Shown: positions 8,013-58,137, counted from the first letter of the stretch. The stretch: 64,000 nt of DNA from an uncultured Acidobacteriota bacterium (GCA_913043225.1 CAJWLU010000003.1:139545-203544), one strand, 5' to 3'. Notes: a model not told the origin generated them from the sequence alone. Translations and numbers: made by a program.

Positions 8013-8579
8013 ATGATCACAGAATCCGCCACGCTGCCGTCGGTCGTGATCCTCAGCTGTTCGTTGAATCCGCAGAGCCGCTCCCATAAGCTGGCCATTG
8101 CCGCGGAGACCTTCCTACGTGGGCGCGGAGTCGGAGTGGAGCTCATCGATCTCGGCGAGCACGAGTTGCCGCTTTGTGGGACCCAGGGCTCGTTCGACCA
8201 CCCCAACGTGCAGCTGCTGACCGGCAAGATCGACGCTGCCGACACCATCCTAATCTCGGCGCCGGTCTACAACTACGACCTCAACGCCGTAGCTAAGAAC
8301 GCCATGGAATTAACCGGATCTGGCTGGAAGGACAAGCCGGTCGGGTTCCTCTGCGCGGCGGGAGGCAAGGCGAGCTACATGTCGCCGATCAGCTTCGCCA
8401 ACAGCCTCATGTTCGACTTCCGCTGTCACGTGATTCCGCGGTTCGTCTACTGCACAAGACCGGACTTCACGGACGAGGGGCAGCCGGGGCCAGAGATCGT
8501 CCAGCGGACAGAACAACTGGCCGCTGCTGCAGTCGATCTCGCCCGGGGCTTGGCGTGGGCGCGCGCCAATCCGGTCTGA
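8013..8579 (+). CDS. NAD(P)H-dependent FMN reductase family oxidoreductase
   Basis: ATG at 8013 within ORF 7962..8579. VVILSCSLNPQSRSHKLA...LISAPVYNYDLNAVAKNAMEL matches the flavodoxin-like FMN_red fold pattern. Confidence 0.8.
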   Translation: MITESATLPSVVILSCSLNPQSRSHKLAIAAETFLRGRGVGVELIDLGEHELPLCGTQGSFDHPNVQLLTGKIDAADTILISAPVYNYDLNAVAKNAMELTGSGWKDKPVGFLCAAGGKASYMSPISFANSLMFDFRCHVIPRFVYCTRPDFTDEGQPGPEIVQRTEQLAAAAVDLARGLAWARANPV

Positions 8580-8592
8580 GATAGAGGAGATC

Positions 8593-9057
8593 GTGCCAGT
8601 GGCGAGGCGAGCCGCGCTCCGTATCCTCTTGGTTACCGTGTCGCTCCTGATCTCGGTCGTGTCAAGCCGTGCGCAGTTCGCGGCCGAGAACGCGGCCATG
8701 GGAGTGCTCGATGATTTCATGGGCGCGTTCAACGCCCGGGACGACGCGGCGATGTGCGGGACGTTCCACTTTCCGCACCTGCGTTTCGCCAGCGGGGCCG
8801 TACGGACCTACGAGAGTCACGCCGACTGTGTCGCCCAGTTCGATTTCGCTCGATTCGTCGAGCGCACCGGATGGGCGCGCAGCGACTGGGACCGTCGTGC
8901 GGTGGTGCAGGCGAGTCCAGACAAAGTCCACGTAGCAGTGATCTTCAGCCGCTACGCCGCAGACGATCAGCGGCTGTCGCAGTTCGACTCGCTTTACATC
9001 ATCACGCGTGTGGAGGGCCGCTGGGCCATCCGGTCGCGTTCCAGCTTCGCTCCGTAG
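8593..9057 (+). CDS. Secreted NTF2-like (SnoaL/DUF4440-like) protein
   Basis: Signal-like N-terminus (LRILLVTVSLLISVVSSRAQ). GVLDDFMGAFNARDDAAM...FHFPHLRF is typical of the NTF2-like alpha+beta cone fold. Confidence 0.6.
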   Translation: MPVARRAALRILLVTVSLLISVVSSRAQFAAENAAMGVLDDFMGAFNARDDAAMCGTFHFPHLRFASGAVRTYESHADCVAQFDFARFVERTGWARSDWDRRAVVQASPDKVHVAVIFSRYAADDQRLSQFDSLYIITRVEGRWAIRSRSSFAP

Positions 9058-9067
9058 CGGCGGACTG

Positions 9068-10906
9068 CTAGCGTCCGGGTATAGCGGTGTTCAGTAGCTC
9101 GGCCGACGGGTCGAGCCGGTCCCAGAGGAACCCGCCGAACCGGATCAGGACCGCGATTATGGCTGCCAGTGGCGCGGCCGTGAGGAGACCCAGAAGCGGC
9201 AGTTGCCAGGCGCCGAGGGCCACATTTAGCACCTGTATCTGCACGAGCAGCCAGGTGCCGCTCACGATGACTCCCGGAAGCAGCCCGATGGTCATCGCGA
9301 CCATCAACCCCAGGCTGGTGATGAGACCCTGTCCGATATGGGCGGCAGAGCCGGCCCGCCGCCGCCCGAGCTGGACCCAGCTGGGCCAGACGAGCGCCAC
9401 CAGGTTCTGGAGCGTGGCTGACAAGGTGGCGACGGTCGCAACCAATGGTATGAGGGTGAGTAGGGCGGCCGCCAGGACCCCGAGAGGTGTCGTGCCCAGA
9501 GCTGTCGCGGTGTCGCTCACGAGCATGACGTCGTCCACCCCAAGGTGCCTGGTGGCGACGCCGGCTATCAACAGGACGCCGGTCGCCAGTGTGGCATACA
9601 GGCTCGCGATGATGGCCGGGCCCGCCACTTCGGCGCCGAACAGTCGCCATCCAGCGACGGGCCAGGTGCGGATCAGTTCCGCGCGTAGCAGGTCGGTCCT
9701 CAGGTCGTTGCGCCACTGGTGACCCGCGGTCAGTGGCGTCATGACCAGGACCATGAGCGCGCCAACCACGAGAATGCCGATTAGCCAGATGGGCAGCGAA
9801 ACCCACGTGACGGCGGCCGTCGCCGCCGTCAGGATGAGCAGAGCGCTCGCGCCGATCGTGGTCAGCGGGGTGCGATGGGCGAGCATCAGGTTCTTCCAGA
9901 GGATGCCGAGCTCCGGTCGCCCCTGGGGACGGAGCCGGAACGGCGCCGCCCGCCGTTGCGACTGCTTCAACTTCAGGAACCGGGCTCCCGCCTCCTGGCT
10001 GGCGGCTAGACGCCGTGATCGGGCCAGGGAGGCGTCTTCAAAGCTCGCTTGGGAGCGCACGACCCACTCGTTGTGCGCGAACACCAGCAGCGCTGGCCAC
10101 ACCAGTAGCCCCAACCGTTCGACCACCGTTAACTCCATGTCGAGCCCACCCAGCACGACTCTGGACAACCAGCGGAACGGTAGAACTAGCACTGACAGCG
10201 CTGGATGATGCTCGCGGAACCAGTCGGGGGAGAGTGGCCCTTGCAGCGTCGTTGAGACGTCTCCCTGGATGTCTGGCACCGACGCGACGAGCGCCGCGAT
10301 AGCGGGCGCGACCATCATCAGTACTAGGCTTGCCGTGCCAACTACCAGCACCCGTCGGCGCCAGGCCCTGGCGGCCGGGAGCTCGGACAGCTGCGCCATC
10401 CACAGGCCTCGTCCGCGCGCGTGGAGATTCCACAAGGTTAGGAGCAGCCACGTCGTCAGGAGCCGCCAGGCGAACACGGACAGGCGCCCGCCTGATGAGA
10501 AGAACGCGACGATGGCGGCGCCGAAGAGCACGCCCCACTGGCTCCGGAGAACCGCGTATTGGATGATATGCCGTCGACGAAGCGGAGCGGGCAGCAGAAG
10601 ATGCAGCTCCGTCTCGGTGAGTTCAACCAGCGCCTTGCCGTAGGGCCAAAGCCACCAGAGGCTGACGAAAATGAGCAAGAGGAGCGCGCTGGAAAACTCC
10701 AGAAGCGGCGCCCATTCGGAGACGTCCTCGACCAGGTAGAGGGCCGCGTCACGATTGATCTGTAGCATCGGACGAAGCGCGAACAGCCCCACCCAGGTGG
10801 CGCCCGCCAGGGTGCCCACCAGATACCGGGGCTGCTTCATCAGGCGGAGCCAGCCGACCACCCGCCCGCGGAGTGACCGCCACGCCAGATAGAGCAGCGG
10901 GCTCAT
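9068..10906 (-). CDS. Polytopic membrane protein, putative ABC exporter permease
   Basis: 612 aa with at least 10 hydrophobic segments. There is a 4-nt start/stop overlap with the upstream ABC ATPase gene (10903-10906). Confidence 0.7.
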   Translation of the reverse strand: MSPLLYLAWRSLRGRVVGWLRLMKQPRYLVGTLAGATWVGLFALRPMLQINRDAALYLVEDVSEWAPLLEFSSALLLLIFVSLWWLWPYGKALVELTETELHLLLPAPLRRRHIIQYAVLRSQWGVLFGAAIVAFFSSGGRLSVFAWRLLTTWLLLTLWNLHARGRGLWMAQLSELPAARAWRRRVLVVGTASLVLMMVAPAIAALVASVPDIQGDVSTTLQGPLSPDWFREHHPALSVLVLPFRWLSRVVLGGLDMELTVVERLGLLVWPALLVFAHNEWVVRSQASFEDASLARSRRLAASQEAGARFLKLKQSQRRAAPFRLRPQGRPELGILWKNLMLAHRTPLTTIGASALLILTAATAAVTWVSLPIWLIGILVVGALMVLVMTPLTAGHQWRNDLRTDLLRAELIRTWPVAGWRLFGAEVAGPAIIASLYATLATGVLLIAGVATRHLGVDDVMLVSDTATALGTTPLGVLAAALLTLIPLVATVATLSATLQNLVALVWPSWVQLGRRRAGSAAHIGQGLITSLGLMVAMTIGLLPGVIVSGTWLLVQIQVLNVALGAWQLPLLGLLTAAPLAAIIAVLIRFGGFLWDRLDPSAELLNTAIPGR

Positions 10907-25979: not shown

Positions 25980-27349
25980 CCACTGCGGTAGACCGCACAC
26001 GGCTGCCCGTGCCAGGCAATCCGCCCTTGGTCCGTTTCCCGTCGGCCAGGGTTGCACGTCTACCTTCGGGTTTGGGCCTCCGCACGGTCGAGCATCCCGG
26101 CCCGCCGGTCGTGACCTGTGCGTTGAGTGTGCCGGTCGGGTCAGCGTCTGATCCCGTTGACCATCCCGGCCTTGTAGCGCTCACGGCGGACCTCTTCGAC
26201 GACGGGAGCGTTAAGCGACCGTCGCTGGAACTCCACGGGGCGCTCGATCGGATCGGTGCCAGGCTGGGGACCGAGGTCGGCACCGACTCGACGACCGTTT
26301 CGCTGACGACGCTTAGCCAATACGCCGTCGAGGGCCTGCGGTTGCTGGCTGAGATCGTTTCTCAGCCCCGCTTCGACCCCCTCGACGTAGAGCGGGTGCG
26401 CGACCTCCGCCGCAGCCGTCTCCGACAACTGAAGACCGTGCCAGGCGCAGTCGCGGACCGCCTGTTTCTTGAGACGATCTTCGGTCCGCATCCCTACGGC
26501 CATCTGGGTCTCGGCACCGACGAGGCGCTCGCGTCCATGGCGGCCGGGCTGGTGCGCGACTTCCATGGGGAAGCGTTCCGCCTCGGACCGGCAACCCTAG
26601 TCGTAGTAGGGGCGCTGTCGCATGAGGAGGCGGCGTCGGTGGCGGCCAAGGCCTTCACCGACGTGCCGGCGGTTCCCGCGACAACGGTCGTCGTTGATGC
26701 GGCGGCCGTCCCGGCGCCGCCCGCGCCGGCGGGCCGTCTGTTCGTCGTCGATCGGCCAGGCGCCGTGCAGACCGAGCTGCGCATCGGTCATCTGGGTGTC
26801 CGGCGGTTGACGCCGGACTATCACGCATTGCTTGCGCTCAATATGGTGCTGGGCGGGCAGTTCACCAGCCGGTTAAACCAGCGCCTTCGGGAAGATCGGG
26901 GCTATACCTACGGCGTTAGGACGTCGTTCGATTGCCGACGAGCGCCCGGTCCCTTCTCCATGGACGGGAGTGTCCAGTCAGATGCGACGGTCGAGACCGT
27001 GACGGAAGTACTGGGTGAGATGTCCGGTATTGGTCGAGACCGACCGGTGACGGCTGACGAGCTAGCGCTGGCTAGAGCGGCACTGACGCGGGGGTTCGCG
27101 CGCGGGTTTGAGACCGCGGGGCAAGTGGCCCGGGGGCTGACCCGCCTTCTGATCCAGCAATTGCCGCCAGACTACTACGACACTTTCGTGCCCCTGGTCG
27201 CAGGGGTTGACGAGGCCGCCGTGACCGAGGCGGCTCTGACCCACCTCCGGCCGGAAGAGGCCGTCGTGGTCGCGGTCGGGCCGGTCGAGCAGTTTGGCGC
27301 CGGGCTCGAGACGCTTGGACTCGGGCCGCTTCAGGTTGTCGACGCCTAA
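25976..27349 (+). CDS. M16 family peptidase-like protein, non-catalytic partner (no HxxEH)
   Basis: 4-nt overlap with the upstream M16 gene. It has the same fold signature, but the equivalent region reads PGLVALTADLFDDGS. Confidence 0.85.
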   Translation: MTTAVDRTRLPVPGNPPLVRFPSARVARLPSGLGLRTVEHPGPPVVTCALSVPVGSASDPVDHPGLVALTADLFDDGSVKRPSLELHGALDRIGARLGTEVGTDSTTVSLTTLSQYAVEGLRLLAEIVSQPRFDPLDVERVRDLRRSRLRQLKTVPGAVADRLFLETIFGPHPYGHLGLGTDEALASMAAGLVRDFHGEAFRLGPATLVVVGALSHEEAASVAAKAFTDVPAVPATTVVVDAAAVPAPPAPAGRLFVVDRPGAVQTELRIGHLGVRRLTPDYHALLALNMVLGGQFTSRLNQRLREDRGYTYGVRTSFDCRRAPGPFSMDGSVQSDATVETVTEVLGEMSGIGRDRPVTADELALARAALTRGFARGFETAGQVARGLTRLLIQQLPPDYYDTFVPLVAGVDEAAVTEAALTHLRPEEAVVVAVGPVEQFGAGLETLGLGPLQVVDA

Positions 27350-46991: not shown

Positions 46992-47453
46992 TCAGGTATC
47001 CAGTCTGTGTGTGAGCTCGCGTATCGTACCGACCGTGCGCTCTAGGTCGGCCTCGGGCAGACCGTCAGCGATTCGGGCGGCCCAGTCGTGACCGACGTCG
47101 GTCAGCGCGGCTTCGATCCGTTCACCTTTCCGAGTCAAGACGAGCAAGGGTGAACGAACATGGTCGGGGTTGGGGTCGTAACGCACGAGGCCGTCCTTTG
47201 CGAGCAGGTCTGCGACCCGCTGCACGCTCTGGCGCGACATACCCATGCGCCGGGCGATCTGCGGAACGGTCCTGGTTTCCTCGGCCACTGCACCGATGAC
47301 CTGCCACCGCGCCTGCGTCTGGCCGAGCGGCGCGGTCAATGCGGCGCCGTGGCGCAGGAGCGCGCCGTTTAACCGAAAGATCTCGAGTACCAGCTGTCGG
47401 AGGGTGTCTGCGCTGGCGGGTCGAGTGGCCGGGGTGTACTGGTCTGAACCCAT
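46992..47453 (-). CDS. MarR family transcriptional regulator
   Basis: 153 aa. Winged-HTH pattern TQARWQVIGAV...TVPQIARRMGMSRQSVQRVADLLAKDGLV. Confidence 0.88.
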   Translation of the reverse strand: MGSDQYTPATRPASADTLRQLVLEIFRLNGALLRHGAALTAPLGQTQARWQVIGAVAEETRTVPQIARRMGMSRQSVQRVADLLAKDGLVRYDPNPDHVRSPLLVLTRKGERIEAALTDVGHDWAARIADGLPEADLERTVGTIRELTHRLDT

Positions 47454-47494
47454 ATGACACTATTGAACCATATAGACATTATTCTGTCAATATG
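47451..47494. promoter_or_regulatory. Candidate MarR operator (three copies of the CATAT-N-GACA motif)
   Basis: CATATGACA (47451-47459), CATATAGACA (47469-47478) and inverted TGTCAATATG (47485-47494). The last two form a 10-6-10 imperfect palindrome in an AT-rich gap next to the MarR start. Confidence 0.35.
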
Positions 47495-47724
47495 AATAGC
47501 CGTGCTACTTTGCCGCATTTGCCGGCGACCCGAGGCGCTGGTCGGGTTATGACTGGACGGGAAGGACCGGTGGCTGAGGTCGCAACTCACTACCTCCGCG
47601 CGGTCCTTGGGGGAGGCACTCGTGTGGCTACGAGCCCCATCCAAGTCATGGAAGATCCCGACCAGACGCCTCGAGTGACGCCCGCCCGCAGGGCCGGAGA
47701 GCCTGCTCCAACCCCGCGGTCCTG

Positions 47725-47958
47725 CTAGTGGGGAGTCGTGTGCTGTATATCGACTTCTGAATCGAGTGTCCGCTCTTCGTCTTCGACTCCGAACTCAACA
47801 TAGGCGTCGCCAAGCAGACGCACCAGCTCCCGTAGTTCTCGCTTGGTGAGCTTCAACACTAGGGGACCCAGATCTACGTGGATGCAGCCGTGTTGACACT
47901 GCGACACGGCCCAGTGCCGCCGTTTACGGGGTTGCTCTTCTGACGTTTCCTGTTTCAT
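47725..47958 (-). CDS. Small hypothetical Cys/His-containing protein co-transcribed with the TonB-dependent receptor
   Basis: 77 aa. A GGAGA RBS lies 4 nt upstream of the ATG, and the start is 12 nt after the receptor stop. Contains CQHGCIH and has no signal peptide. Confidence 0.55.
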   Translation of the reverse strand: MKQETSEEQPRKRRHWAVSQCQHGCIHVDLGPLVLKLTKRELRELVRLLGDAYVEFGVEDEERTLDSEVDIQHTTPH

Positions 47959-47970
47959 GATGTCTCCGTA

Positions 47971-50247
47971 CTACCAATCAAGGGCTAGAGACGTGATGAC
48001 GCTGCGTCCCGGGCTCGAATAGCGGTCGATTACTGGGTCGTTCGTGCCTCGGCCGCGGACGTTCCACCACTCAAAATAGGTTTCATCGGCTAGGTTCAGT
48101 AGTCCGATTCGGAAGGTCACCGCGTCGGCCGGCCGGATCGAGGTGACGAAGTCAACCACCTGGTACCCGTCCGGCGCGAATTGTCCGTCACCGGCATCCA
48201 AAGCAGTCTGTCCTTCGGTGATCCGTACCGACAGCTCGCTTGTCCACCAGCCGTCTGGGTCGATGTACTGGAGCCCAATGACGCCTTCGTCCGGCGTAAT
48301 CGAACCGAGGGGTGTGTCGGTGTCGCCGGACACGTCGGTCCCGGTTATGGCGGCCCAGCTAGCGCGGAGGCGGACACGGTTGGTGAGATACGTGTCGGCC
48401 CTCACTTCGACTCCCCCGATCTCTACCTCTGACAGGTTCTGGCTCTGGAACTCCAGGAGGAATGTGGCGGGGTTGAACCCGACCGCGGTTAGCTCGATGA
48501 AGTCATCGTAGCGATTCGAGAAGGCGGTGACATCCAGGCTTGTCCGGCCAAATGCGGCCCGCAGCCCAACTTCAATGTTGTCGCTCGTCTCGGCATTCAA
48601 CCCCGCGTTCGGGAGCGTGGTGTATCCGCCCGCTAGGTTGGTGAAGCCGGTGTTGATCGCGCTGTAGGGAGGTGCGCGGAAACCGCCGGCATACTGGGCG
48701 TGCGCGGTTAGGTCGTCCGTGATCAAGACCGTGGCGCCAATCTTCGGCGACATCGCGTCGGCCGAGAAATCAGCTGGCACCGGATTCAGTCCGGCAAGGT
48801 AAACCGCGTCCTCCTGGTTGGCGTCGAGTGAGTACCGGTCGTAGCGGACTCCCGGGACGATGGTCAGACGGTCTACGCGGAGCTCGGCTTGCACATAGAC
48901 GCCGGTCTCATCAACGTCGCTCTCTGGGAAATACTTCGCCGGGAAGATGAGGCTGGTCGGCACCGGCGCACCGGTGATGATGTTCGTTTCGCTGCGATCA
49001 CGCAGCACATCGAACGCATCACGTGTGAAGCTGGCGCCGAAGGTCAGCATCAGCCCGTTCTCGGTACCCCCGACCCAGTGTTGTCCTTGCCCTGAGGCGC
49101 CGAAGCCCCGCTGCTCGAAATTGACGGTGCCGGTCCTCGAGGACAGCGTGGGCGGACCGAACGCGACGATTGATCGGGACTCGTCTACGACTTGGGAGGT
49201 GTCGCCCCCCTGGCCGTAGACCCGCCAGGTGAGCACGTCTAGTCCACGCTGCGGTGTCAGGACGTGATCGAGCGAGATTCGCCAGCGCTTCTGAGTGTCG
49301 AGGGCCTGCGCGCTCGTCGTGCTGAACGCGACCGGACCGTAGAAGGTTGTGCCCTGAAGCGAGTACGCCGTCGTGTTGATCTGGGTGTCGAACACCTCGA
49401 TCGCGCTTCGGAAGATGTTTCCTGGAGACGCAGTGAAAACCATCTTGCCGAGCGCCTGCAGGCCTTCGCGGTCTTGAGGGTTTGGTGCGGTGCGGGTGAC
49501 GTCCAGTGTTTCGATTGTGCCCTGGTTCTTGGTCTCGTTTCCCCGGCTGTAACTGGTAAACAGCGACCCCTGCACGCTCTCGTTGCCTAGGGCGAACGCG
49601 AAGTTGCCGCTGGTATCGTCAGAGCGCCCGTCCCAGGTGGTCTTGACGCCGAGGTAGCGCTTCTGGTCCAGCAAGTAGTCGGCAGGGTCTTTCGTGAACA
49701 AGGACACGACACCGCCTAGGGCGTCGCTGCCGTAGAGGGCCGAGTTGGCGCTCCGGACGATCTCGACCGACTTGAGCGTGTCCACGTCGAGGCCTGCCTG
49801 ATGGATGCTGAACGGCCCGAAGTCGAACTGCTCGGAGGTCTGTACCCCATCGACCTGGGTCATGACACGGTTACCACCCACGCCACGAATGTTGAAGCCG
49901 TTCAAGCCGAGTCGGGTTACGTCGTTCTCGACATAGACGCCAGGTTCGAACTTGACGAGGTCGGAGAAGCTCTCGACCATCCGCTCCGCGATGGTTTCGC
50001 TATCGATGACCGACACCACGCCCGGGGTCTCCCTCAGCGATGACGGCGAAAGCGTGGCCGTGACCGTTATCTCATCGAGATACGTCGTCGGCTCGTCCTC
50101 GGTCGACTGATTGGTGCTGGCACTAGTCGACGTTTGCGGCTGAGCCAGCACCTCGGCGGGCAGGAGTGCCACCGTTAGCGAGAAGACGAGGACGGCTCCT
50201 GCCCCCTGGGGACCGCGTCCGCGTCGGAGCTGTTGTACGAGCTGCAT
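47971..50247 (-). CDS. TonB-dependent outer-membrane receptor
   Basis: ATG at 50247 (GGAG RBS) gives a signal peptide ...LPAEVLAQ. Plug domain ITVTATLSPSSLRETPGVVSVID. There is a FRAP-like box (GGFRAPPYS) and an NPNL-like box (LPNAGLNAE). The C-terminus ends in an aromatic residue (...SLALDW). Confidence 0.9.
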   Translation of the reverse strand: MQLVQQLRRGRGPQGAGAVLVFSLTVALLPAEVLAQPQTSTSASTNQSTEDEPTTYLDEITVTATLSPSSLRETPGVVSVIDSETIAERMVESFSDLVKFEPGVYVENDVTRLGLNGFNIRGVGGNRVMTQVDGVQTSEQFDFGPFSIHQAGLDVDTLKSVEIVRSANSALYGSDALGGVVSLFTKDPADYLLDQKRYLGVKTTWDGRSDDTSGNFAFALGNESVQGSLFTSYSRGNETKNQGTIETLDVTRTAPNPQDREGLQALGKMVFTASPGNIFRSAIEVFDTQINTTAYSLQGTTFYGPVAFSTTSAQALDTQKRWRISLDHVLTPQRGLDVLTWRVYGQGGDTSQVVDESRSIVAFGPPTLSSRTGTVNFEQRGFGASGQGQHWVGGTENGLMLTFGASFTRDAFDVLRDRSETNIITGAPVPTSLIFPAKYFPESDVDETGVYVQAELRVDRLTIVPGVRYDRYSLDANQEDAVYLAGLNPVPADFSADAMSPKIGATVLITDDLTAHAQYAGGFRAPPYSAINTGFTNLAGGYTTLPNAGLNAETSDNIEVGLRAAFGRTSLDVTAFSNRYDDFIELTAVGFNPATFLLEFQSQNLSEVEIGGVEVRADTYLTNRVRLRASWAAITGTDVSGDTDTPLGSITPDEGVIGLQYIDPDGWWTSELSVRITEGQTALDAGDGQFAPDGYQVVDFVTSIRPADAVTFRIGLLNLADETYFEWWNVRGRGTNDPVIDRYSSPGRSVITSLALDW

Positions 50248-50358
50248 GGCTATACTCCAAATGGGTTCCGGTCCGCCCCATGCGGTACCGGCGCTCACTT
50301 GGGCGCTCCCGTTCGGCTCCTACACCATGGGCGGGGGCGCCCACCTCTGATCCAACGT

Positions 50359-51672
50359 TCAGTTCAGTGCCTTGTCGTCCGAGCTGACTCGGATAAGTTC
50401 GGTCCCGGCCCGGATCAGGATCGCATCGTCAACCGCCGCGATCGCTGTGACGGGTGCGCTGACCGACAAGTGGTTAGTAGCCACAACCTGGGCCGTTTTC
50501 GCCGATGCCGCCAGTATCTCGGTCGTACCGTCCTCACCAAAGAAGAAGACGTGGTCTCGGTGACCGAGCGGAGTAGCCCACGTGGACGCGGAAAGCCGAT
50601 GGGTCCACTGGACCTCGCCCGATTGTGGGTCCAGGCAGCGTGCCGCGCCCGCTGGGTTGATCCAATATATGCACTTGCCGTACGCGAACGGGGAGCCGAA
50701 GTTTGAACCGCTACCGGTCTTCCAGGCGACGGCCGTTTCGTCGAGTTTGCCGAGCCCGCCCCGTCGGATGGCAAGGTTTGCATCGACCGCCAGTCCTCCC
50801 ACCACGACGAGCTCGTTCGTGACCGTTGGGGAGGGCACATGGTTGCCGCTCAGACCGGCGAAGTGCCAGCGGCGTTCGCCGGTGACGGCGTCGAAGCCTT
50901 CGATCTGTCCGGACGCGCTGACGACGATCTCATTGCCTTCGGGCGATAGCACTGGTGTGGTCCAGGCGACTCCGGCGTCCCGCTCGGTCCGCCATAGCGT
51001 GTCGCCAGTGGTTCGATCGACCGCGAGAAGATAGGAGTAGGTACGTCGAGTCAGAAGTACCACGACCGCACGGGGAGTCAGCAGCAAGGAGTTTCCGACC
51101 CCGTGATTACCTCCTACGGATCCATAGTCCTTGGTCAGATCACGTTGCCAATGCACTGCACCGTCGTGGCCCAAGGCGATAAGGTCGCCGCTGGCGAAGA
51201 AGCTATAGATGCGGTCTTGGTCGACGACTGGAGTGGGCGCTGCTTTGGAGACGTAGTCATTGAACTCGTGTGGTTCGGAGGCATCGAAAGCCTGGCGCCA
51301 CTGTTCGCTGCCGTCTTCCAGATTGAGCGCCGTGACCCACAGACGTTCTTTCATGGCGCCTTCAATCGAGGTGACGAACACTGAACTGTCCCAGATCACC
51401 GGGGAGGACTGCCCAAACCCCGGGGTGGTGACACGCCAGGCGACAGTCTGGTCGGACCAGGTAAGTGGGAGTCGGGCGGCGTGGCTGACGTTGGTACCGT
51501 CGCCGCGGAAGCCCGGCCATCGCGTAGCGGCCTCGGAGGTCGCAAAAACGAAACCCGCGCGCCGAGTTTGGGCAGCATGGTCTGCCAGGAGGAGGAAGAC
51601 CAAAGCCACGATACAGCCGCCCGCAGAGGGCAGTAGCCCTCCGAAGATCGGTGGAGGCGCTAGCGATCGCAC
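50359..51672 (-). CDS. Secreted PQQ-like / BamB-like beta-propeller repeat protein
   Basis: 437 aa. Repeated W-containing blades (VAWRVTTPG, EQWRQAF, VHWQRDL, TLWRTER, RRWHFAG, VQWTHRL). Confidence 0.8.
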   Translation of the reverse strand: MRSLAPPPIFGGLLPSAGGCIVALVFLLLADHAAQTRRAGFVFATSEAATRWPGFRGDGTNVSHAARLPLTWSDQTVAWRVTTPGFGQSSPVIWDSSVFVTSIEGAMKERLWVTALNLEDGSEQWRQAFDASEPHEFNDYVSKAAPTPVVDQDRIYSFFASGDLIALGHDGAVHWQRDLTKDYGSVGGNHGVGNSLLLTPRAVVVLLTRRTYSYLLAVDRTTGDTLWRTERDAGVAWTTPVLSPEGNEIVVSASGQIEGFDAVTGERRWHFAGLSGNHVPSPTVTNELVVVGGLAVDANLAIRRGGLGKLDETAVAWKTGSGSNFGSPFAYGKCIYWINPAGAARCLDPQSGEVQWTHRLSASTWATPLGHRDHVFFFGEDGTTEILAASAKTAQVVATNHLSVSAPVTAIAAVDDAILIRAGTELIRVSSDDKALN

Positions 51673-53441
51673 CGGCGCCCCCCTTTCAGGCTGACGCCGG
51701 CAAGGCTGGCGTCGCTGTCACAGCGGCTACGTTCGTCAGGCTGCCACCCCATGATCTGGCGCATCGCTGCCTCGCCTTGAGTGATTAAGTCACCGATCCA
51801 GCGAGCAAATAGCGGGTGGGGAGCGAAGCCAGCTCCGATCTGCACTCCGTCGAGGTCGCTGAGTTCGTACTGGGATGGGCCGGTCCCGGTCATCCGGGCT
51901 GGAATGGCCAGCACTGTCCGGCCGAGGGCTCGTTCGGCTTCAATGATGCCGTGGATCTGGGCCTCGGCTTCCTCGCGGGCGTCGGGCCAGTCTTCTCGCC
52001 AGTTGGCCCAGTGGAATGCCGCGAAGTTCGGTTCGTGCTCCTGCATCTGCGAGGCGATCGACTCAAGGTTCTCCAACCACGCCGCGTTTCCCTCGTCGCT
52101 GCCCGCACCGTGACCAAGGAGCAGCACGGCCTCCTGCGAGGGATTGTTAGAGAGGGCTCGGGCGCGCGCCGCGAGCGCCTCCGCAAATGCCGGGTGGTCT
52201 TCCAGGCCGCCAAGGGTGGCGAAGATCGCCGCAGAGCGCACCCGAGGGGGTGGTCCCATGCCCATGGACATGCCCGGTTCATCGCCGAGCCCCATCAGAT
52301 ACTCGATGCGGTCGAGAAATGACGCTGCTTGGGCGAAGACCCGAATGAGCACGATGGCCCGCGCACCGCGTTCTTCCAGGCGTGAGACGGCTCGACCGAG
52401 CACGACCGGGTCGGCCATCGAGAAGGCATATTCGACCAACCGGCTCTGGGTTAACTCGGCGAGCGGCTGGCGAATCGACTCGTTCCAGTCGATGTCGGCG
52501 CCGTGCGGCATCAGCACGTACCCGATCTCGTTGGCTGTGGGTGGAATCCAGCGATTGGCCTCTTGGGCCATCCAGACTGTTGCCATGGGGTCTGGGATGA
52601 CCCCTTGAGCGAGGAACTCCACCGAGACCCCGGCAAGGCTCCTACGTAGGGAGCCGTTCAGGTCCATCATCGAGTCCATGCGGGAGCCCAGGTGCCAGGG
52701 GATCACCAGGACGCGATCATGGGCTTTGGCCAGCGCGTCTGCAGCTGGTCGAATCCGGTCGAGCGACGATTGGAGTTCATCGAAATCACCACTGGGTCCT
52801 CGTACCACCACGACGTCAGTGGCTGCGAGCCCAGTTGCCCGGCTAACCCTCCCGAGAGTGTCTGATAGGTCAGCTTCCATGGCGGAAGTCGAGCTTGCGT
52901 CGACCGCTCCGGAGCCGACCACGAGGACCGCGACGTCCGGTGGAGGGGCCCCGGGCATACCTGGTCGCACGCCTGCGGTAGAGAGGCGCTCAATCAGGAT
53001 CTCTTCGGCCAGATACGAAGCTCCGAACGGGTCCGCCACGGCAATGTCTAGTCCGGTGTTGTTGATGGCGTCGTGGACCCGCACCAGCAGGGGGTGAGTA
53101 CCGGCCAGGAAGAGCGGCAGTGCCGCGATCTTAGATGCCCCGTTGAGGCGGAGACGCTCTATCGCAGGTGAGGCGAAGCGCATCGGGTCACCGTCCCACG
53201 GAAGGAATGCGAGTTCAGCCCGGAAGGCTTCTGAGAACTTGCGAAACGCATCGCGCACTTCGTCGTTTCCGAGAAATCCACGGTCTGGGGCCACGACGAG
53301 GAAGCCGACCTGACCAGGATCGGCCGGTGGTACCAGTCGCGGCACTCGGGTTTCCATGACGTGCTGCGCTGACGTCGTGGTTCCGGCAACCACAATGAGG
53401 GCGAAGAATGCCGCGAGGTAGCGTATGGGCAGTCTGGTCAT
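51660..53441 (-). CDS. Secreted protein with tandem CbiX/SirB-like (class II chelatase) modules
   Basis: 593 aa with signal peptide YLAAFFALIVVAGTTTSAQ. It has four alpha/beta half-domains. The C-terminal pair carries HG motifs (YVLMPHGADIDWN, VLLLGHGAGSDEGN). The N-terminal pair has PLF-type blocks (ALPLFLAGTHP) but no His at the equivalent HG position. Assigned by eye only. Confidence 0.6.
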   Translation of the reverse strand: MTRLPIRYLAAFFALIVVAGTTTSAQHVMETRVPRLVPPADPGQVGFLVVAPDRGFLGNDEVRDAFRKFSEAFRAELAFLPWDGDPMRFASPAIERLRLNGASKIAALPLFLAGTHPLLVRVHDAINNTGLDIAVADPFGASYLAEEILIERLSTAGVRPGMPGAPPPDVAVLVVGSGAVDASSTSAMEADLSDTLGRVSRATGLAATDVVVVRGPSGDFDELQSSLDRIRPAADALAKAHDRVLVIPWHLGSRMDSMMDLNGSLRRSLAGVSVEFLAQGVIPDPMATVWMAQEANRWIPPTANEIGYVLMPHGADIDWNESIRQPLAELTQSRLVEYAFSMADPVVLGRAVSRLEERGARAIVLIRVFAQAASFLDRIEYLMGLGDEPGMSMGMGPPPRVRSAAIFATLGGLEDHPAFAEALAARARALSNNPSQEAVLLLGHGAGSDEGNAAWLENLESIASQMQEHEPNFAAFHWANWREDWPDAREEAEAQIHGIIEAERALGRTVLAIPARMTGTGPSQYELSDLDGVQIGAGFAPHPLFARWIGDLITQGEAAMRQIMGWQPDERSRCDSDASLAGVSLKGGRRCDR

Positions 53442-53579: not shown

Positions 53580-53608
53580 TTGATATTGAGAATGAGTCTC
53601 AATATCAA
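53580..53608 (-). promoter_or_regulatory. Palindromic operator embedded in a sigma70-like promoter (site 1)
   Basis: TTGATATTGAGA (53580-53591) / atgag / TCTCAATATCAA (53597-53608), a perfect 12-5-12 palindrome. On the minus strand it reads TTGATA-17 nt-TATCAA, about 140 nt upstream of the CbiX-like gene start. Confidence 0.5.
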
Positions 53609-53628
53609 CATTAAGGTGAACTGTATGT

Positions 53629-53645
53629 CCGACCGAATCGGTCGG
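53629..53645 (-). terminator. Short palindromic stem-loop after the JmjC-like gene
   Basis: CCGACCGA a TCGGTCGG lies 12 nt downstream of the stop at 53657. There is no clear U-tract. Confidence 0.3.
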
Positions 53646-53656
53646 TCAAGGAAAAA

Positions 53657-54871
53657 TTATTTGAGGCGAGAGCGTTCGTGGTGGGATCTCAAGAGGCCCT
53701 CTCTTGCGAGTCGCCGAATCAGTGTGAGGTTTCCTGCGGTGTCGAGCGGACCCGGGAGTTCAAGGGCGGTAAACCTTTCATTAGCACAGATGAACTCGAT
53801 GGCTTCGGCGACATGGAGCGGGAACCGCAACTCCTGCCCAGCGAAGCACATCACGCACTCGTTCTGCGAGAGGTACGAGTGGATGGCCATCTCTCGTCGA
53901 ATGACCACCGTATCCTCGTTCACCAGATGCTGGTCGGCCCGCTGAGTCAGAAGGTCTGAGAAAAGCGGTTGATTGGCCGCAGATACCTCACTGGCAAACC
54001 GTCGCCAGACATCCTCAAAAGAGCGATCGAGTGCCAAGTCAAAGTGCTGGCGAGCCAGGGTCGCGGTCTCTTCTGGTGTGAGTTTCCCACTCGCGAAACC
54101 GACTGGGAGGTTGGCGCGGAGGGCTGGGTTCTCGAGGGCTGCGGCCGACACTGCGTCGGCGAGAAAGTCAGCCCATGTAAAGGCGGTCAATCCGAGGGTG
54201 ATGTGAAGAGAAGCGGTATCGACCGACCGCGCGGCATGCATCAGTCCTCGCGGAAGATAGACGAAGTCGCCCGCATGAAGATCGAACTCGTCGATTGTGC
54301 GCCCAGGGCGATCGACGTCCGGATTGCACTTCTGCCCTCGCAAGGGCAGCGCGATCGGGCTCTCGAAGACACTCCACCGTTTTGAGCCGCTGACTTGCAT
54401 CACGAAGACGTCGTGGGTGTCCCAATGGGGCTTGAACCCTTGGGCCTCTGGGGGCGTGAGATAGATGTTGGTCTGGATGCGGGAACCGAAGCGCTGCCCC
54501 AGCGCGACGCAAAGCGCCGCGAGTTGGGGGAGGCGACGATGGAGCCCACGAAAGATGACGGTCGCGCCTTCGTCGAAGAGGCGCGTCACTTCCAGCGGTT
54601 CGGCTACCCCGGCTGGGCCGGTGAACCGGCTGGCGTCGATGGCGGTCTCGTCGGCTCGCACTAGTGAAATGTCAGGGAAGCGGAGCGCATGCGTCCCCAG
54701 CACGTGGTCCAAGTCGGCGAAGGTCAGGAGCGACTCGAAGTAATTGGGCTGTTGGCGGTGGACGACCCGGTGTCGTCGCTCGTAGAACTCATCCTCGAAG
54801 GTTGAAGTCGAGAGCGGATCGAGTAGCCAGGCGTACGGAGCGTTGGCGATGGGCGGCGTGTGTGGCTTCAT
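53657..54871 (-). CDS. JmjC / cupin-4 family 2OG-Fe(II) oxygenase (ribosomal oxygenase RoxA/YcfD-like)
   Basis: 404 aa. NIYLTPPEAQGFKPHWDTHDVFVMQVSGSKRWSVFE contains the HxD motif and cupin-4 core, with a later H in the LHITLG region. Confidence 0.8.
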   Translation of the reverse strand: MKPHTPPIANAPYAWLLDPLSTSTFEDEFYERRHRVVHRQQPNYFESLLTFADLDHVLGTHALRFPDISLVRADETAIDASRFTGPAGVAEPLEVTRLFDEGATVIFRGLHRRLPQLAALCVALGQRFGSRIQTNIYLTPPEAQGFKPHWDTHDVFVMQVSGSKRWSVFESPIALPLRGQKCNPDVDRPGRTIDEFDLHAGDFVYLPRGLMHAARSVDTASLHITLGLTAFTWADFLADAVSAAALENPALRANLPVGFASGKLTPEETATLARQHFDLALDRSFEDVWRRFASEVSAANQPLFSDLLTQRADQHLVNEDTVVIRREMAIHSYLSQNECVMCFAGQELRFPLHVAEAIEFICANERFTALELPGPLDTAGNLTLIRRLAREGLLRSHHERSRLK

Positions 54872-54933
54872 GGTGTCGCCTGGCCGCTGCGCGAGCGCCA
54901 GCCCGTCGACGCTCTGTCTGGGAAGGCCTGGCG

Positions 54934-55401
54934 CTACTGATGAAGCTCGACGCCCTGGGCGACGAAGCTTACTTCGGTTGCCGTGCCGTCAGGGTTTCGA
55001 GTCAGCGCGACACCCTCGGCGATGAGGTGATCCGCGTCGGCTTTGGAGAAGACGTTCGTTTCCAGGCGGCCTTCGAGGCGAGCTCGTTGTCCGGCTGAGT
55101 CCGTGGGGACGAAGAAGGCGTAGTCTCTGAAAGTTACCCGGATTCCACGGTCGTCGCCAGGCCTGACTAACTCCATCCAGCAGCCCTTGACCTGACAGAC
55201 CCGCTTGACTTCTCCCTCGAGCGTCAGCAGACGATCCGCATACTGGTCAGCCTGTTCGACAGCTTCGTCAAGCCCAATCGCTGGGGAGCCGCCGAGCCTG
55301 GTTCCTCGGGTCACGATGTTCTGGGCGGTGGCCGAGCCTATCGAAAGCACTGCGGCGATGGTGAATGCGCTGATCTGACGAGTAGGGCGTAGTGATATCA
55401 C
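54934..55401 (-). CDS. Secreted DUF4920-like protein
   Basis: 155 aa with a signal peptide (FTIAAVLSIGSATAQ). Characteristic block EGEVKRVCQVKGCWMEL. Confidence 0.7.
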   Translation of the reverse strand: MISLRPTRQISAFTIAAVLSIGSATAQNIVTRGTRLGGSPAIGLDEAVEQADQYADRLLTLEGEVKRVCQVKGCWMELVRPGDDRGIRVTFRDYAFFVPTDSAGQRARLEGRLETNVFSKADADHLIAEGVALTRNPDGTATEVSFVAQGVELHQ

Positions 55402-55511
55402 CTAAGGTCCCTTCTGTGAGCGTCGGACAGAGCTTTAGCATAGCAGAAGCCGATCCGACCGCGAGGTGAGCGGTGAGGTCTGTGCAAGCGTACCTAAGAG
55501 TTTTTGATTTA

Positions 55512-55540
55512 TTGAGATTGAGACTCAGTCTCAATATGTT
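55512..55540. promoter_or_regulatory. Palindromic operator embedded in divergent sigma70-like promoters (site 2)
   Basis: ATTGAGA (55517-55523) ctcag TCTCAAT (55529-55535). The plus strand reads TTGAGA(55512-55517)-17 nt-TATGTT(55535-55540) and the minus strand reads TTGAGA-17 nt-TAAATC. It lies between the DUF4920 gene (start 55401) and the flavodoxin gene (start 55818). Confidence 0.5.
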
Positions 55541-55817
55541 ATATGTAGAGACCCACCTGCCGGGTAGGTGGGTGTAGCGGGATATCGGGGAAAGGGGACC
55601 CCAGATAGATGCCCGTGGGGCGAGGCAACGCCCCACGGGCCGTCGAACCTGCATCGGCCGTCTGAGAGCGAATCAAACGGGTAACCAGCGTCGTCCGACC
55701 TAGCGAATGTAGCACACCGTTGGACGGCTGCTGCGGCCACTTTCTGCATGCGTGCATCTACGGCGGACCAGGTCGAGGATCAGCACGGTGTAGCTACTTC
55801 CCCAAGGACCTCAATAC

Positions 55818-56378
55818 ATGGAAGCGTCAATCGCCATCTTCTTCGGATCCACCACCGGCAGTACACAGATGGTCGCGGAAAAGATCCGTGATCTCCTGGG
55901 TGAGCGGCTCTCTCACCTCGCCGATGTGAACACGGCGGAAGCGTCTGAACTCGAGCAGTACGACGTGATCTTCTTCGGAGTGCCAACGTGGAACGTTGGT
56001 GAGATGCAGGATGACTGGGCCGATTTCATTCCCAATATGTCGGAACTGAACCTTGCAGGAAAGAAGGTTGCCTTCTTTGGGGTTGGCGATGCGGTCGGCT
56101 ACGCCGAGAACTTTCTGGATGCTATGGGCGAGCTCTGGGCGGCCGTGTACGCACAAGGCGCGCCGACACTGGTAGGCGTGTGGCCGACCGACGGATACGT
56201 GTTCGAAGCATCGAAAGGGCTTTACGACGACAACCATTTCCTCGGCGTGGGTCTCGACGAAGACAACGAATCTCACCTAACAGATGAGCGACTGGACCTC
56301 TGGCTTGCGCAGGTGCTCCAGGAGCTGGCCTTGGTTGAGGCCGCAGGAGAGGCCGTCGACGAGGCGGTTGCTCAGTAG
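55818..56378 (+). CDS. Long-chain flavodoxin
   Basis: [22 protein letters not shown]-phosphate loop. [14 protein letters not shown] and [14 protein letters not shown]...[10 protein letters not shown] closely follow the FldA/IsiB pattern. Confidence 0.9.
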
Positions 56379-56406
56379 CCGTTGGTGCTATGCAGGAAGG
56401 AGAATA

Positions 56407-57012
56407 ATGATGAACTACACCGGGCCCAAAGTGCGTCTGAGTCGAAAGCTGGGCGTCGCCCTGACCCCGAAGGGGCAGGTGGCGATGGAGAAACGGCCGG
56501 GGCGACCTGGCCAACATGGTGGGATGCGTCGCCGCCGGCAGGAGACGTCTTACGGAAAACAACTGCTCGAAAAGCAGCGTCTACGCTTTCAGTACAACGT
56601 ACACGAACGTCAGATGCGCACCTACTTTAAGCGGGCGATGCGGAGAGAGGGACCGACTGGAGATAACCTCGTTCAGCTTCTCGAATCGAGACTTGACGCC
56701 CTCGTATATCGGGCGGGTTTGGCCCGTACGATCTACGCGGCACGTCAGTTCGTTAATCACGGCCATATCGACGTCGATGGCAAGCGTGTCGACATTCCCT
56801 CCTTCAGCGTTCGCATCGGCCAGACCGTTGGAGTCCGAGAGAAATCCCGTCAGCTGGATTGCTTTCGGGACGGACTGGGACTAGAGAGCGCGCCTGCCTA
56901 TCTGAGGGTGGCAGACACCGAGCTTTCGTTCACGAAAGACCGCGAGCCGGAAAGAGACGAAGTTCCGGTCATTTGTGACGTTCGCCAGGTGGTCGAGTTC
57001 TATTCCCGCTGA
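56407..57012 (+). CDS. rpsD: 30S ribosomal protein S4
   Basis: ATG at 56407 (RBS GGAAGGAG) gives [16 protein letters not shown]... Also [36 protein letters not shown], an S4 domain, and a C-terminal VVEFYSR. Confidence 0.93.
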
Positions 57013-57286
57013 CGTCTGTTTTTGGGTCGAGTCTGGCTCAGCTAACTGGTGATGACCAGCTGGAAGGGGTGTGGTTGATGTCGTTCGGTAGTTCTCCGAG
57101 CTGCCAGTGTTGATAGTAAGGCTGTTGACGATTCGAGACTCGTCCTTGTCACGCGTGCGACGCTGCTGATGAGGGCGGGGCGTAACTCTGAACGGCGAGC
57201 GTCGGTCAACGGCCGCTAGCCGGGTTCTTCAGGAATTTCCGTGACTAGGCCGGACCAGAATAAGTATCCGGCTCCCACGAGAGCGT

Positions 57287-57592
57287 CTAACGGGCCGCCG
57301 CTCGTTTACCGAAAAGCCTACCGACAGCTTGCATCCGCTGCCAGAAAAAGTCGAACTGCCCGAGCAGCGTGCCGTACCCGATCAGGAAGAGGTGATACAT
57401 CGGAACCATCACCACGAGGTAGACGGTCCACTGTACCCATCTCTGGGCATCCGGCGGTAGCAGGAAGGCGATGAGTGGAGCCTTCACCAGTACCGTCGAC
57501 GTGCCAGCCAGCGAGAAGGCCACCAGGACGGCGACGGTGCGCCAGAGTGTCAAGCGCCAGCGCTCCTGCATGCGCTGCAGGGTCGCTTTCAT
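57287..57592 (-). CDS. Hypothetical small membrane protein
   Basis: 101 aa with 2-3 TM segments (TVAVLVAFSLAGTSTVLV, VQWTVYLVVMVPMYHLFLIGYGTLL). Its start overlaps the stop of the upstream small gene (TAATG). Confidence 0.5.
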   Translation of the reverse strand: MKATLQRMQERWRLTLWRTVAVLVAFSLAGTSTVLVKAPLIAFLLPPDAQRWVQWTVYLVVMVPMYHLFLIGYGTLLGQFDFFWQRMQAVGRLFGKRAAAR

Positions 57593-57798
57593 TACTGAGA
57601 GTCGCTATCGGAGTCTGTGCCGTCGCCGCCGCTGCTCGGGCAGGCCGCCGTCATGGCCGCGCTCACGCCGATGGCTCCGGCGATCACCGTCTTGGCCAGG
57701 AATGAGCGCCGGTCCACGCGGGCCGTCTGAATGTCGCTGTCGGACAGCGTGGCGGTCCCATCCTTCAGTTTCTTCGCTTCCGGGTGTCTGGTCGTCAT
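57592..57798 (-). CDS. 68-aa protein consisting almost entirely of a Tat signal peptide, a lipobox-like Cys and an acidic 16-aa tail
   Basis: ATG at 57798 is preceded by GGAGA. MTTRHPEAKKLKDGTATLSDSDIQTARVDRRSFLAKTVIAGAIGVSAAMTAACPSSGGDGTDSDSDSQ contains the twin-arginine motif RRSFLAK and the h-region, then TAAC. Confidence 0.5.
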   Translation of the reverse strand: MTTRHPEAKKLKDGTATLSDSDIQTARVDRRSFLAKTVIAGAIGVSAAMTAACPSSGGDGTDSDSDSQ

Positions 57799-57862
57799 TG
57801 GTCTTGTCTCCTGATTGTCCGAAGGCATCGGCCTAGCTTGACCGGCACCTCGAGTAGCATGT

Positions 57863-57898
57863 AATTTACACCGTATGAGATTGAGACTCAATCTCATA
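57863..57898 (-). promoter_or_regulatory. Palindromic operator embedded in a sigma70-like promoter (site 3)
   Basis: ATGAGATTGAG (57875-57885) a CTCAATCTCAT (57887-57897), an 11-1-11 palindrome. It shares the 14-nt string GAGATTGAGACTCA with site 2. The minus strand reads TTGAGT-17 nt-TAAATT, about 65 nt upstream of the Tat-signal ORF. Confidence 0.45.
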
Positions 57899-58137
57899 TT
57901 TCTCTAGTGAAATCTGCCCTGAGTCCATTCCTCGAGGGGGTGTGCATCCAGCCGGTTGAAACCTCGCAGGCCGGCGACCTGCTTTTCATGCCTCGGCGAC
58001 AGATGAGGTCGACAATCCAGAGCTTTCTGCCTTCGATCTGGGCGCCCTGATTCTAGAGGTCGCCTGGGGACAGCTTGCTGGCGAGCGTGCCGAACTGAGT
58101 AGCGTCCATTTGCTACAGTGAGTTTCGACGAAAAGGG

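Follow-up and report, generated by a model that had tools for sequence, protein, structure and literature searches.

Three near-identical palindromes lie between genes in a 64,000-nucleotide (nt) stretch of DNA from an uncultured Acidobacteriota bacterium (GCA_913043225.1, CAJWLU010000003.1:139545-203544; hereafter the window), and they raise the question of which protein reads them and in response to what signal. The original prediction took them for a candidate iron-responsive regulon of the Fur family. Repression of iron uptake by Fur is a textbook principle of bacterial regulation; what is new here is a regulon of this known type in a phylum for which we found no published description, our literature search having returned no Fur motif or Fur box for Acidobacteriota. 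Our analysis supports the iron-responsive reading, and we put at roughly 85% the probability that the three palindromes are operators of the organism's iron-sensing Fur repressor. This estimate, reached by sequence comparison, follows from the architecture of the sites, from targets that include a haem-type receptor and a flavodoxin, from conservation of the box, from hybrid boxes in other lineages and canonical ones at an orthologous operon, from the core held in common with Fur-binding sites of Caulobacter, and from the adjacency of the motif to Fur genes in metagenomes.

The three sites were found where they had been placed, with the sequences as quoted, although site 3 extends 3 nt beyond the end originally given, to 57901. 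Site 1 is indeed a perfect 12-5-12 palindrome (TTGATATTGAGA-ATGAG-TCTCAATATCAA), and sites 2 and 3 have 14 identical bases in common (GAGATTGAGACTCA). All are intergenic and stand 91-292 nt from start codons. The centre of site 1 is 153 nt 5' of a gene for a CbiX-like protein and 63 nt 3' of the stop codon of a JmjC oxygenase gene; site 2 separates the divergent DUF4920-JmjC and flavodoxin-rpsD units; and the centre of site 3 is 91 nt 5' of a gene for a 68-amino-acid (aa) protein with a twin-arginine (Tat) signal. The AT-rich setting described earlier was borne out (28-34% GC within the sites, 43-46% in their flanks), but the window as a whole measures 64.7% GC rather than about 67%. The 19-bp core has the form of a Fur box, with TGA...TCA ends, AT-rich flanks and a 7-1-7 inverted repeat (TGAGAnT-n-AnTCTCA). 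Read with a 6-bp offset, it resolves into three hexamers (GAGATT GAGACT c AGTCTC), and such overlapping repeats leave room for two dimers at each site. The 6-bp-offset partner recurs in related loci (L011, L014, L017, L018, L019 and L216-L218; fetched loci and contigs are given by L numbers throughout).

The motif is not a product of chance. The window contains exactly three strong copies of ATTGAGA-N5-TCTCAAT, and a search with ATTGAGANNNNNTCTCAAT allowing up to 3 mismatches returned 5 matches, all of them at the three sites, against 0.72 expected; none of 100 shuffled sequences reached 5. We then scanned the window with a 23-nt position weight matrix (PWM) built from 14 acidobacterial sites (consensus ATATTGAGACTCAGTCTCAATAT). 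The three sites scored 32-41 bits, each accompanied by a further copy offset by exactly 6 bp (21-27 bits), and nothing else in the 64 kb reached 10 bits, the maximum of 50 shuffles being 12.5 bits. The claim that the motif occurs nowhere else in the 64 kb thus held. One further core match, at 26350 (TGAGATCGTTTCTCA), was rejected on its PWM score of less than 10 bits.

The motif is also conserved. Proteins of the window occur in marine assemblies (Tara and others) and in a metagenome-assembled genome (MAG), GCA_002722915.1 ('Acidobacteria bacterium'); in species-representative genomes, the nearest relatives of the 593-aa CbiX-like protein belong to uncultured Vicinamibacteraceae and Acidobacteria UBA2990. 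The box precedes the CbiX-like operon where that protein is 72% (L014), 57% (L011) and 49% identical (L012/L013, with a second box before the receptor gene), and again at identities of 54%, 53%, 51% and 48% (L016-L019). It precedes the flavodoxin-S4 pair in L216-L218 and L220, whose S4 proteins are 71-75% identical, and it is found in L019 5' of the gene homologous to that of the small Tat protein, in L017 beside DUF6787. In the divergent Tat68/JmjC region of L018 no box reached 9 bits; therefore not every target is conserved. When six diverged promoter regions were aligned, the box stood out as the sole invariant block, its flanks beyond about 23 nt being unrelated both between sites and between species.

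How do these sites relate to boxes known to bind Fur? In Caulobacter crescentus, Fur-binding sites such as ATTGAGAACCATTCTCAAA (CC_0155), TTTGAGAATGGTTCTCAAT and GATGAGAATGACACTCAAT contain the same ATTGAGA-N5-TCTCAAT core (PMC2724300, Table 3). Gel shift assays validated 11 such sites (da Silva Neto et al. 2009, PMC2724300); these are the counterpart of the 'Fur-alpha box' that Rodionov et al. (2006, PMC1698941) predicted for alpha-proteobacteria. The Caulobacter box is likewise a 19-bp palindrome with this outer core. It, too, occurs in a GC-rich genome, frequently between divergent genes, and stands 5' of TonB-dependent receptors; Caulobacter fur itself has a predicted site. The two differ in their central five bases, AAC-N-GTT or AAT-N-ATT there and CTSAG here, and in the frequent replacement of TTGAGA by TTGCGA in Caulobacter. 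That regulon also contains iron-using enzymes (sdh, nuo, acnA), none of which was seen here; moreover, its host is an alpha-proteobacterium rather than an acidobacterium, and for the acidobacterial sites binding is predicted from sequence. The half-site variant TGAGACT is closest to this Fur-alpha box.

The classical Fur box (E. coli GATAATGATAATCATTATC; the B. subtilis 7-1-7 form TGATAATnATTATCA) shares the 7-1-7 inverted repeat, the AT-rich flanks (ATWATGA...TCATWAT), the 6-bp-offset copies that make three hexamers (GATAAT-GATAAT-C-ATTATC compared with GAGATT-GAGACT-C-AGTCTC here) and targets of the iron-uptake and flavodoxin type. It differs at half-site positions 4 and 6, TGATAAT against TGAGACT, so that 13-14 of 19 bases agree with the E. 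coli consensus in a hand alignment. The two forms are nevertheless continuous. Hybrid sites in L018 (TGATAATGAGACTCATTATCA) and L012 (AATGATAATGAGTCTCATT) combine canonical TGATAAT halves with TGAGACT halves, and TTGAGAATCATTCTCAA, TTGAGAATCGTTATCAA and TTGATAACCATTATCA stand next to one another at a Nitrospirota locus (L025), a mixed population of TGATAAT and TGAGAAT boxes. The CbiX-like/TonB receptor operon is widespread across phyla, and in Nitrosomonas and Nitrosospira canonical Fur boxes stand 5' of its orthologue. One such box is TAATGATAATAATTATCATTA in L064; another, at position 8492 of the N. europaea locus L082, is followed by DUF2325, the CbiX-like gene and the TonB receptor gene. 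Over 80 such loci, boxes of the TGAnAATnATTnTCA type occurred at 0.123/kb in the 2.6 kb 5' of the gene and at 0.030/kb elsewhere, a fourfold difference. For N. europaea, there is experimental work on the Fur protein and the boxes that it reads (PMC3050691).

To see which genes the motif accompanies beyond this locus, we scanned metagenomes for the exact consensus ATTGAGACTNAGTCTCAAT, which was present in at least 120 contigs (L096-L215). The first open reading frame (ORF) on each side was taken in the first 80 contigs, and the resulting 119 flanking ORFs were compared with Pfam. Among the matches listed, FUR (11) and FeoB (10) were the most frequent families, accompanied by FeoA (3), ferritin (2), TonB receptor (2), FTR1 (1), ChaN (1) and ZnuA (1); the motif is enriched at iron-homeostasis genes well outside the window. 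PF12974, a phosphonate-type binding protein (7), and ApbE (4) were also frequent neighbours in this set. A Fur-family ORF began within 300 nt 3' of the palindrome in 19 of the 120 contigs among the matches listed (tblastn), where our own estimate of gene frequency predicts less than one by chance, an excess of roughly a hundredfold. MAGs of Thermoanaerobaculia (Acidobacteriota), Dongiaceae and Chloroflexota have the adjoining regulators annotated as Fur or transcriptional repressor, so a box 5' of a fur-family gene is seen in other organisms, including members of the same phylum. In all nine adjoining regulators that we scanned, the NCBIfam models for Fur came ahead of those for Zur, PerR and Irr. 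Flavodoxin follows arrays of the box in two low-GC contigs (L185 and L210). The exact palindrome is used far from Acidobacteriota: it adjoins Fur genes of Dongiaceae and Chloroflexota, and some of the contigs that contain it have a GC content of 30-45%.

Within the window, the gene identities proposed earlier were confirmed by Pfam, NCBIfam and structure-database comparisons, and the sites stand near genes for iron acquisition and iron sparing, namely the haem-type receptor operon and the long-chain flavodoxin (Table 1). The receptor scores 335 bits against TIGR01786 (cut-off 324) and 322 bits against TIGR01785 (cut-off 317), and so passes for both families, the haem/haemoglobin receptors and the haemoglobin/transferrin/lactoferrin receptors. 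Directly 3' of it on the same strand, public gene calls give a 77-aa ORF and a MarR-family regulator (46992-47958). The flavodoxin reaches 196 bits with the long-chain equivalog TIGR01752 (cut-off 147), and S4 is above the cut-offs of its NCBIfam equivalog models. Among solved structures, the JmjC_2 oxygenase is nearest to NO66 and MINA53 (E ~1e-30) and to YcfD, all of them ribosomal oxygenases. It is an Fe(II)/2-oxoglutarate (2OG) enzyme within a putative iron-starvation regulon, a few kb from rpsD, and a homologue adjoins the CbiX-like operon in L018. The 68-aa protein offers little beyond its twin-arginine signal, an acidic tail and a Cys that may belong to a lipobox; it is paired with DUF6787, and homologues lie near the box in relatives (L017:9320-9610, L019:15422-15571, L018:2054-2191).

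Table 1. Boxes, predicted target genes and a candidate promoter (window coordinates, except for the rpsD boxes, which are numbered within their own loci).
Feature	Position	Strand	Sequence or content	Basis or score
Site 1	53580-53608		TTGATATTGAGAATGAGTCTCAATATCAA; core ATTGAGAATGAGTCTCAAT at 53585-53603; shifted copy at 53589	41.5 + 24.6 bits
Site 2	55509-55540		GAGATTGAGACTCAGTCTCAATATG at 55514-55538; core ATTGAGACTCAGTCTCAAT at 55517-55535; shifted copy at 55509	39.0 + 26.7 bits
Site 3	57872-57901		GAGATTGAGACTCAATCTCATATTT at 57877-57901; core ATTGAGACTCAATCTCATA at 57880-57898; shifted copy at 57872	32.1 + 21.2 bits
Target operon 1	47971-53441	-	CbiX-like, beta-propeller, TonB-dependent receptor	Pfam, NCBIfam, gene order kept in relatives
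CbiX/SirB-like chelatase-fold protein	51660-53441	-	593 aa, secreted	Weak class II chelatase similarity (Pfam)
Beta-propeller	50359-51672	-	PQQ/BamB type	Pfam
TonB-dependent receptor	47971-50298	-	Haem/haemoglobin type	Start at ~50247 in public gene calls
Target unit 2	53657-55401	-	DUF4920 (54934-55401), JmjC_2 Fe(II)/2OG oxygenase (53657-54871)	
Target unit 3	55818-57012	+	Long-chain flavodoxin (55818-56378) and, 28-31 nt on, S4 (56407/56410-57012)	
Target unit 4	57287-57798	-	68-aa twin-arginine-signal protein (57592-57798), DUF6787 membrane protein (57287-57592)	
Candidate promoter, operon 1	53649-53620	-	TTGACC-18-TACAGT	Consensus match and conservation in L011
rpsD box, L219	5736-5758		TACTGAGACAAAGTCTCAATAG	23 bits
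rpsD box, L221	4927-4949		TAATGAGACATCGTCTCAATAA	26 bits
rpsD box, L222	4805-4827		AGTTGAGACGGCGTCTCAATAG	16 bits

From this arrangement we infer the binding protein, the metal that it senses, the sign of its effect and its geometry at the promoters. With sufficient iron, Fe(II)-loaded Fur dimers would bind each box, probably two dimers to a site because each site consists of two 7-1-7 repeats shifted by 6 bp relative to each other. The boxes are predicted to lie over the promoters of four transcription units or immediately 3' of them, so that bound Fur would repress the operon for the CbiX-like protein, beta-propeller and haem-type TonB receptor, as well as DUF4920-JmjC oxygenase, flavodoxin(-rpsD) and the pair of small Tat protein and DUF6787. 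When iron becomes scarce, Fur would lose its metal and leave the DNA, and the resulting derepression would supply a haem/iron uptake system together with flavodoxin, an iron-free substitute for ferredoxin.

The promoters themselves are less clear than the boxes. Each palindrome had been proposed to span a -35 and a -10 hexamer 17 nt apart, at site 2 on both strands, such that a bound dimer would occlude RNA polymerase. On the plus strand of site 2, TTGAGA-17-TATGTT overlaps the box, which fills the spacer, and matches the promoter consensus at 9 of 12 positions; sites 1 and 3 reach 8 of 12 on the minus strand. The scan as a whole found 2 where 1.1 were expected, which is not above chance. On the minus strand of site 2, TTGAGA-17-TAAATC, read by hand from the reverse complement, lacks the final T of the -10 hexamer and did not appear in the scan output. 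Occlusion of polymerase by a bound dimer would depend on weak hexamer matches. At site 1 a better candidate, conserved in L011, is TTGACC-18-TACAGT, which would put the site at roughly +5 to +33; the box would then lie just 3' of the transcription start and outside the spacer. A short hairpin, CCGACCGATTCGGTCGG, is contained in this TTGACC-N18-TACAGT element just 5' of site 1, and the layout is the same in L011:9690-9735 (TTGACCGACCAATTCAGTCGGATATAGGAT).

If a protein of the Fur family binds the box, it might still be another paralogue: Zur (zinc), Mur (manganese), Nur (nickel), PerR (peroxide) or Irr (haem). Mur sites of alpha-proteobacteria resemble Fur-alpha boxes (PMC1698941), about one third of the adjoining Fur-family genes in metagenomes were closer to our approximate PerR/Zur queries than to E. 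coli Fur (tblastn), and one ZnuA gene flanks the palindrome among the matches listed. Moreover, the S4 gene of the regulon is of the Cys-less kind and recalls the ribosomal paralogues controlled by Zur. It lacks the Cys4 cluster of Thermus S4 and, like these paralogues, stands behind a Fur-family-type operator near metal-sparing genes; unlike them, it keeps company with a regulon that otherwise concerns iron, not zinc. To our knowledge, S4 is not among the ribosomal paralogues regulated by Zur. The S4 of the window passes the S4 equivalog cut-offs and is present there in a single copy. Neither znuABC, ZnuD and COG0523 nor Cys-less L31, L33, L36 or S14 occurs among the targets in the window, and we saw no sitABCD or mntH and none of the classical Zur paralogues of these ribosomal proteins. 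The targets that we did see are specific to iron (haem-type receptor, flavodoxin, FeoAB, ferritin, FTR1, ChaN, PepSY_TM), the beta-proteobacterial orthologous operon has boxes of the GATAATGATAATCATTATC type and no Zur boxes, and the best NCBIfam match was Fur for every regulator scanned. We therefore regard a paralogue as an unlikely reader of these sites. Less likely again is a regulator unrelated to Fur whose site merely resembles a Fur box. Many dimeric regulators bind AT-rich 19-bp inverted repeats, but the commonest gene directly 3' of the exact palindrome encodes a Fur-family regulator, other regulator families are absent from the top flanking families among the matches listed, and the box grades into canonical Fur boxes.

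The palindromes might instead act as RNA hairpins, either terminators or 5' stabilisers, or constitute a small mobile repeat, their likeness then reflecting common descent. A simple scan flagged site 2 as terminator-like with a 12-bp stem, site 1 lies 63 nt past the stop of the JmjC gene, and in L219, L221 and L222 the box lies 3' of a good promoter and hence would be transcribed. What is kept, however, is the sequence of the arms and not their pairing: TGAGA/TCTCA is invariant in the six aligned regions and retained in most other sites, and no compensatory changes were seen. The stems are AT-rich and lack a T-run, copies offset by 6 bp would be meaningless for a hairpin, and the flanks of the sites are unrelated. 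An Rfam search of the whole window found only a tRNA-Leu. Conserved arm sequence, together with the missing T-run and the missing Rfam match, therefore favours a protein-binding DNA site, and we consider the hairpin or repeat the least probable of these explanations.

Several points weigh against Fur as the reader of the sites. When E. coli Fur and approximate queries for PerR and Zur were compared by tblastn, no Fur-family gene came up in the window or in the orthologous acidobacterial loci, L057 (Thiotrichales) being the only one of the fetched loci to have such a gene; for this organism, the presence of Fur and its autoregulation are extrapolated from other Acidobacteriota. The Fur-family proteins that adjoin the palindrome in metagenomes score below the NCBIfam equivalog cut-offs, a fact equally in line with a paralogue, so that the metal they sense is not certified. 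The metagenome scan had no matched control pattern, and a few of its matches (L106, L131) are longer perfect hairpins, probably of other origin. Overlap with promoters is based on hexamers that match at 8-9 of 12 positions and as a set do not exceed chance. Finally, several lineages have rpsD behind the box, and if they possess no other S4 gene, its straightforward repression in iron-replete cells would be paradoxical.

The link between the box and rpsD is nonetheless recurrent. The gene stands behind the box in at least four acidobacterial lineages, in the clade of the window by way of flavodoxin. In more distant Acidobacteriota MAGs (L219, L221 and L222), a conserved TTGACA-N17-CAGAAT promoter is followed about 13 nt later by the box. 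The order is rpsD and then flavodoxin in L222 and L223; since flavodoxin is linked to S4 in either order, the link between the two must be old. The S4 loci of L223, L224 and L225 have no box, and rpsD stands alone in other Acidobacteriota. The window contains no second S4 copy, and our literature search found no paper linking Fur with rpsD. Between site 2 and flavodoxin, the gap (55541-55817) is unusually long at about 280 nt and contains two strong GC-rich hairpins, cccacctgccgggtaggtggg and gcccgtggggcg...cgccccacgggc, at about 55545-55640. Neither L216 nor L220 shows conservation of the gap, and the Rfam search returned no riboswitch or known small RNA in this flavodoxin leader.

Because the box precedes both rpsD and a JmjC gene of the ribosomal-oxygenase family (NO66/MINA53/YcfD), the acidobacterial Fur regulon might reach into the ribosome, with iron tuning the supply or the variant of S4 as well as the hydroxylation of ribosomal proteins, while the secreted CbiX-like protein could serve as a periplasmic haem dechelatase. 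We hold this combined proposal to be speculative, with the odds well against it. The last part arises from the position of the CbiX-like gene, which is co-operonic with the haem-type receptor and stands behind Fur boxes in several phyla, so that its product may, by analogy, be a haem dechelatase; HmuS, the chelatase-family protein of Bacteroidota, provides the analogy (PMC13227078, PMC10100974). Secreted proteins of about 590 aa with two CbiX/SirB chelatase-like halves of the HG(S/A) type occur in many phyla (window 51660-53441; L011-L095), nearly always with a TonB-dependent receptor as neighbour and frequently behind a Fur box. The protein had no sequence match in PDB, and we found no paper on periplasmic CbiX-like proteins in haem uptake. 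It is in this protein, and in the link of rpsD and the ribosomal oxygenase to the box, that new biology may lie.

The box provides a usable Fur-box model for Acidobacteriota, ATATTGAGACTSAGTCTCAATAT. For an abundant phylum with few cultured members, such a model would make it possible to recognise iron regulons in MAGs and to infer iron limitation from acidobacterial metatranscriptomes of marine and soil origin. It also labels as candidates for iron regulation the CbiX-like secreted protein, DUF4920, the JmjC_2 oxygenase, DUF6787 with its small Tat partner and possibly rpsD.

The neighbourhood of the box also seems to have been rearranged in one relative. In L011, many transposases (IS66, IS21, Mutator, DDE) occupy the region 5' of the box (8019-9700), and just 5' of the box S4 is reduced to its last 25 codons, a 3' remnant cut by an IS66 element. 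The remnant and the transposases suggest disruption or reshuffling of an 'iron island' by insertion sequences.

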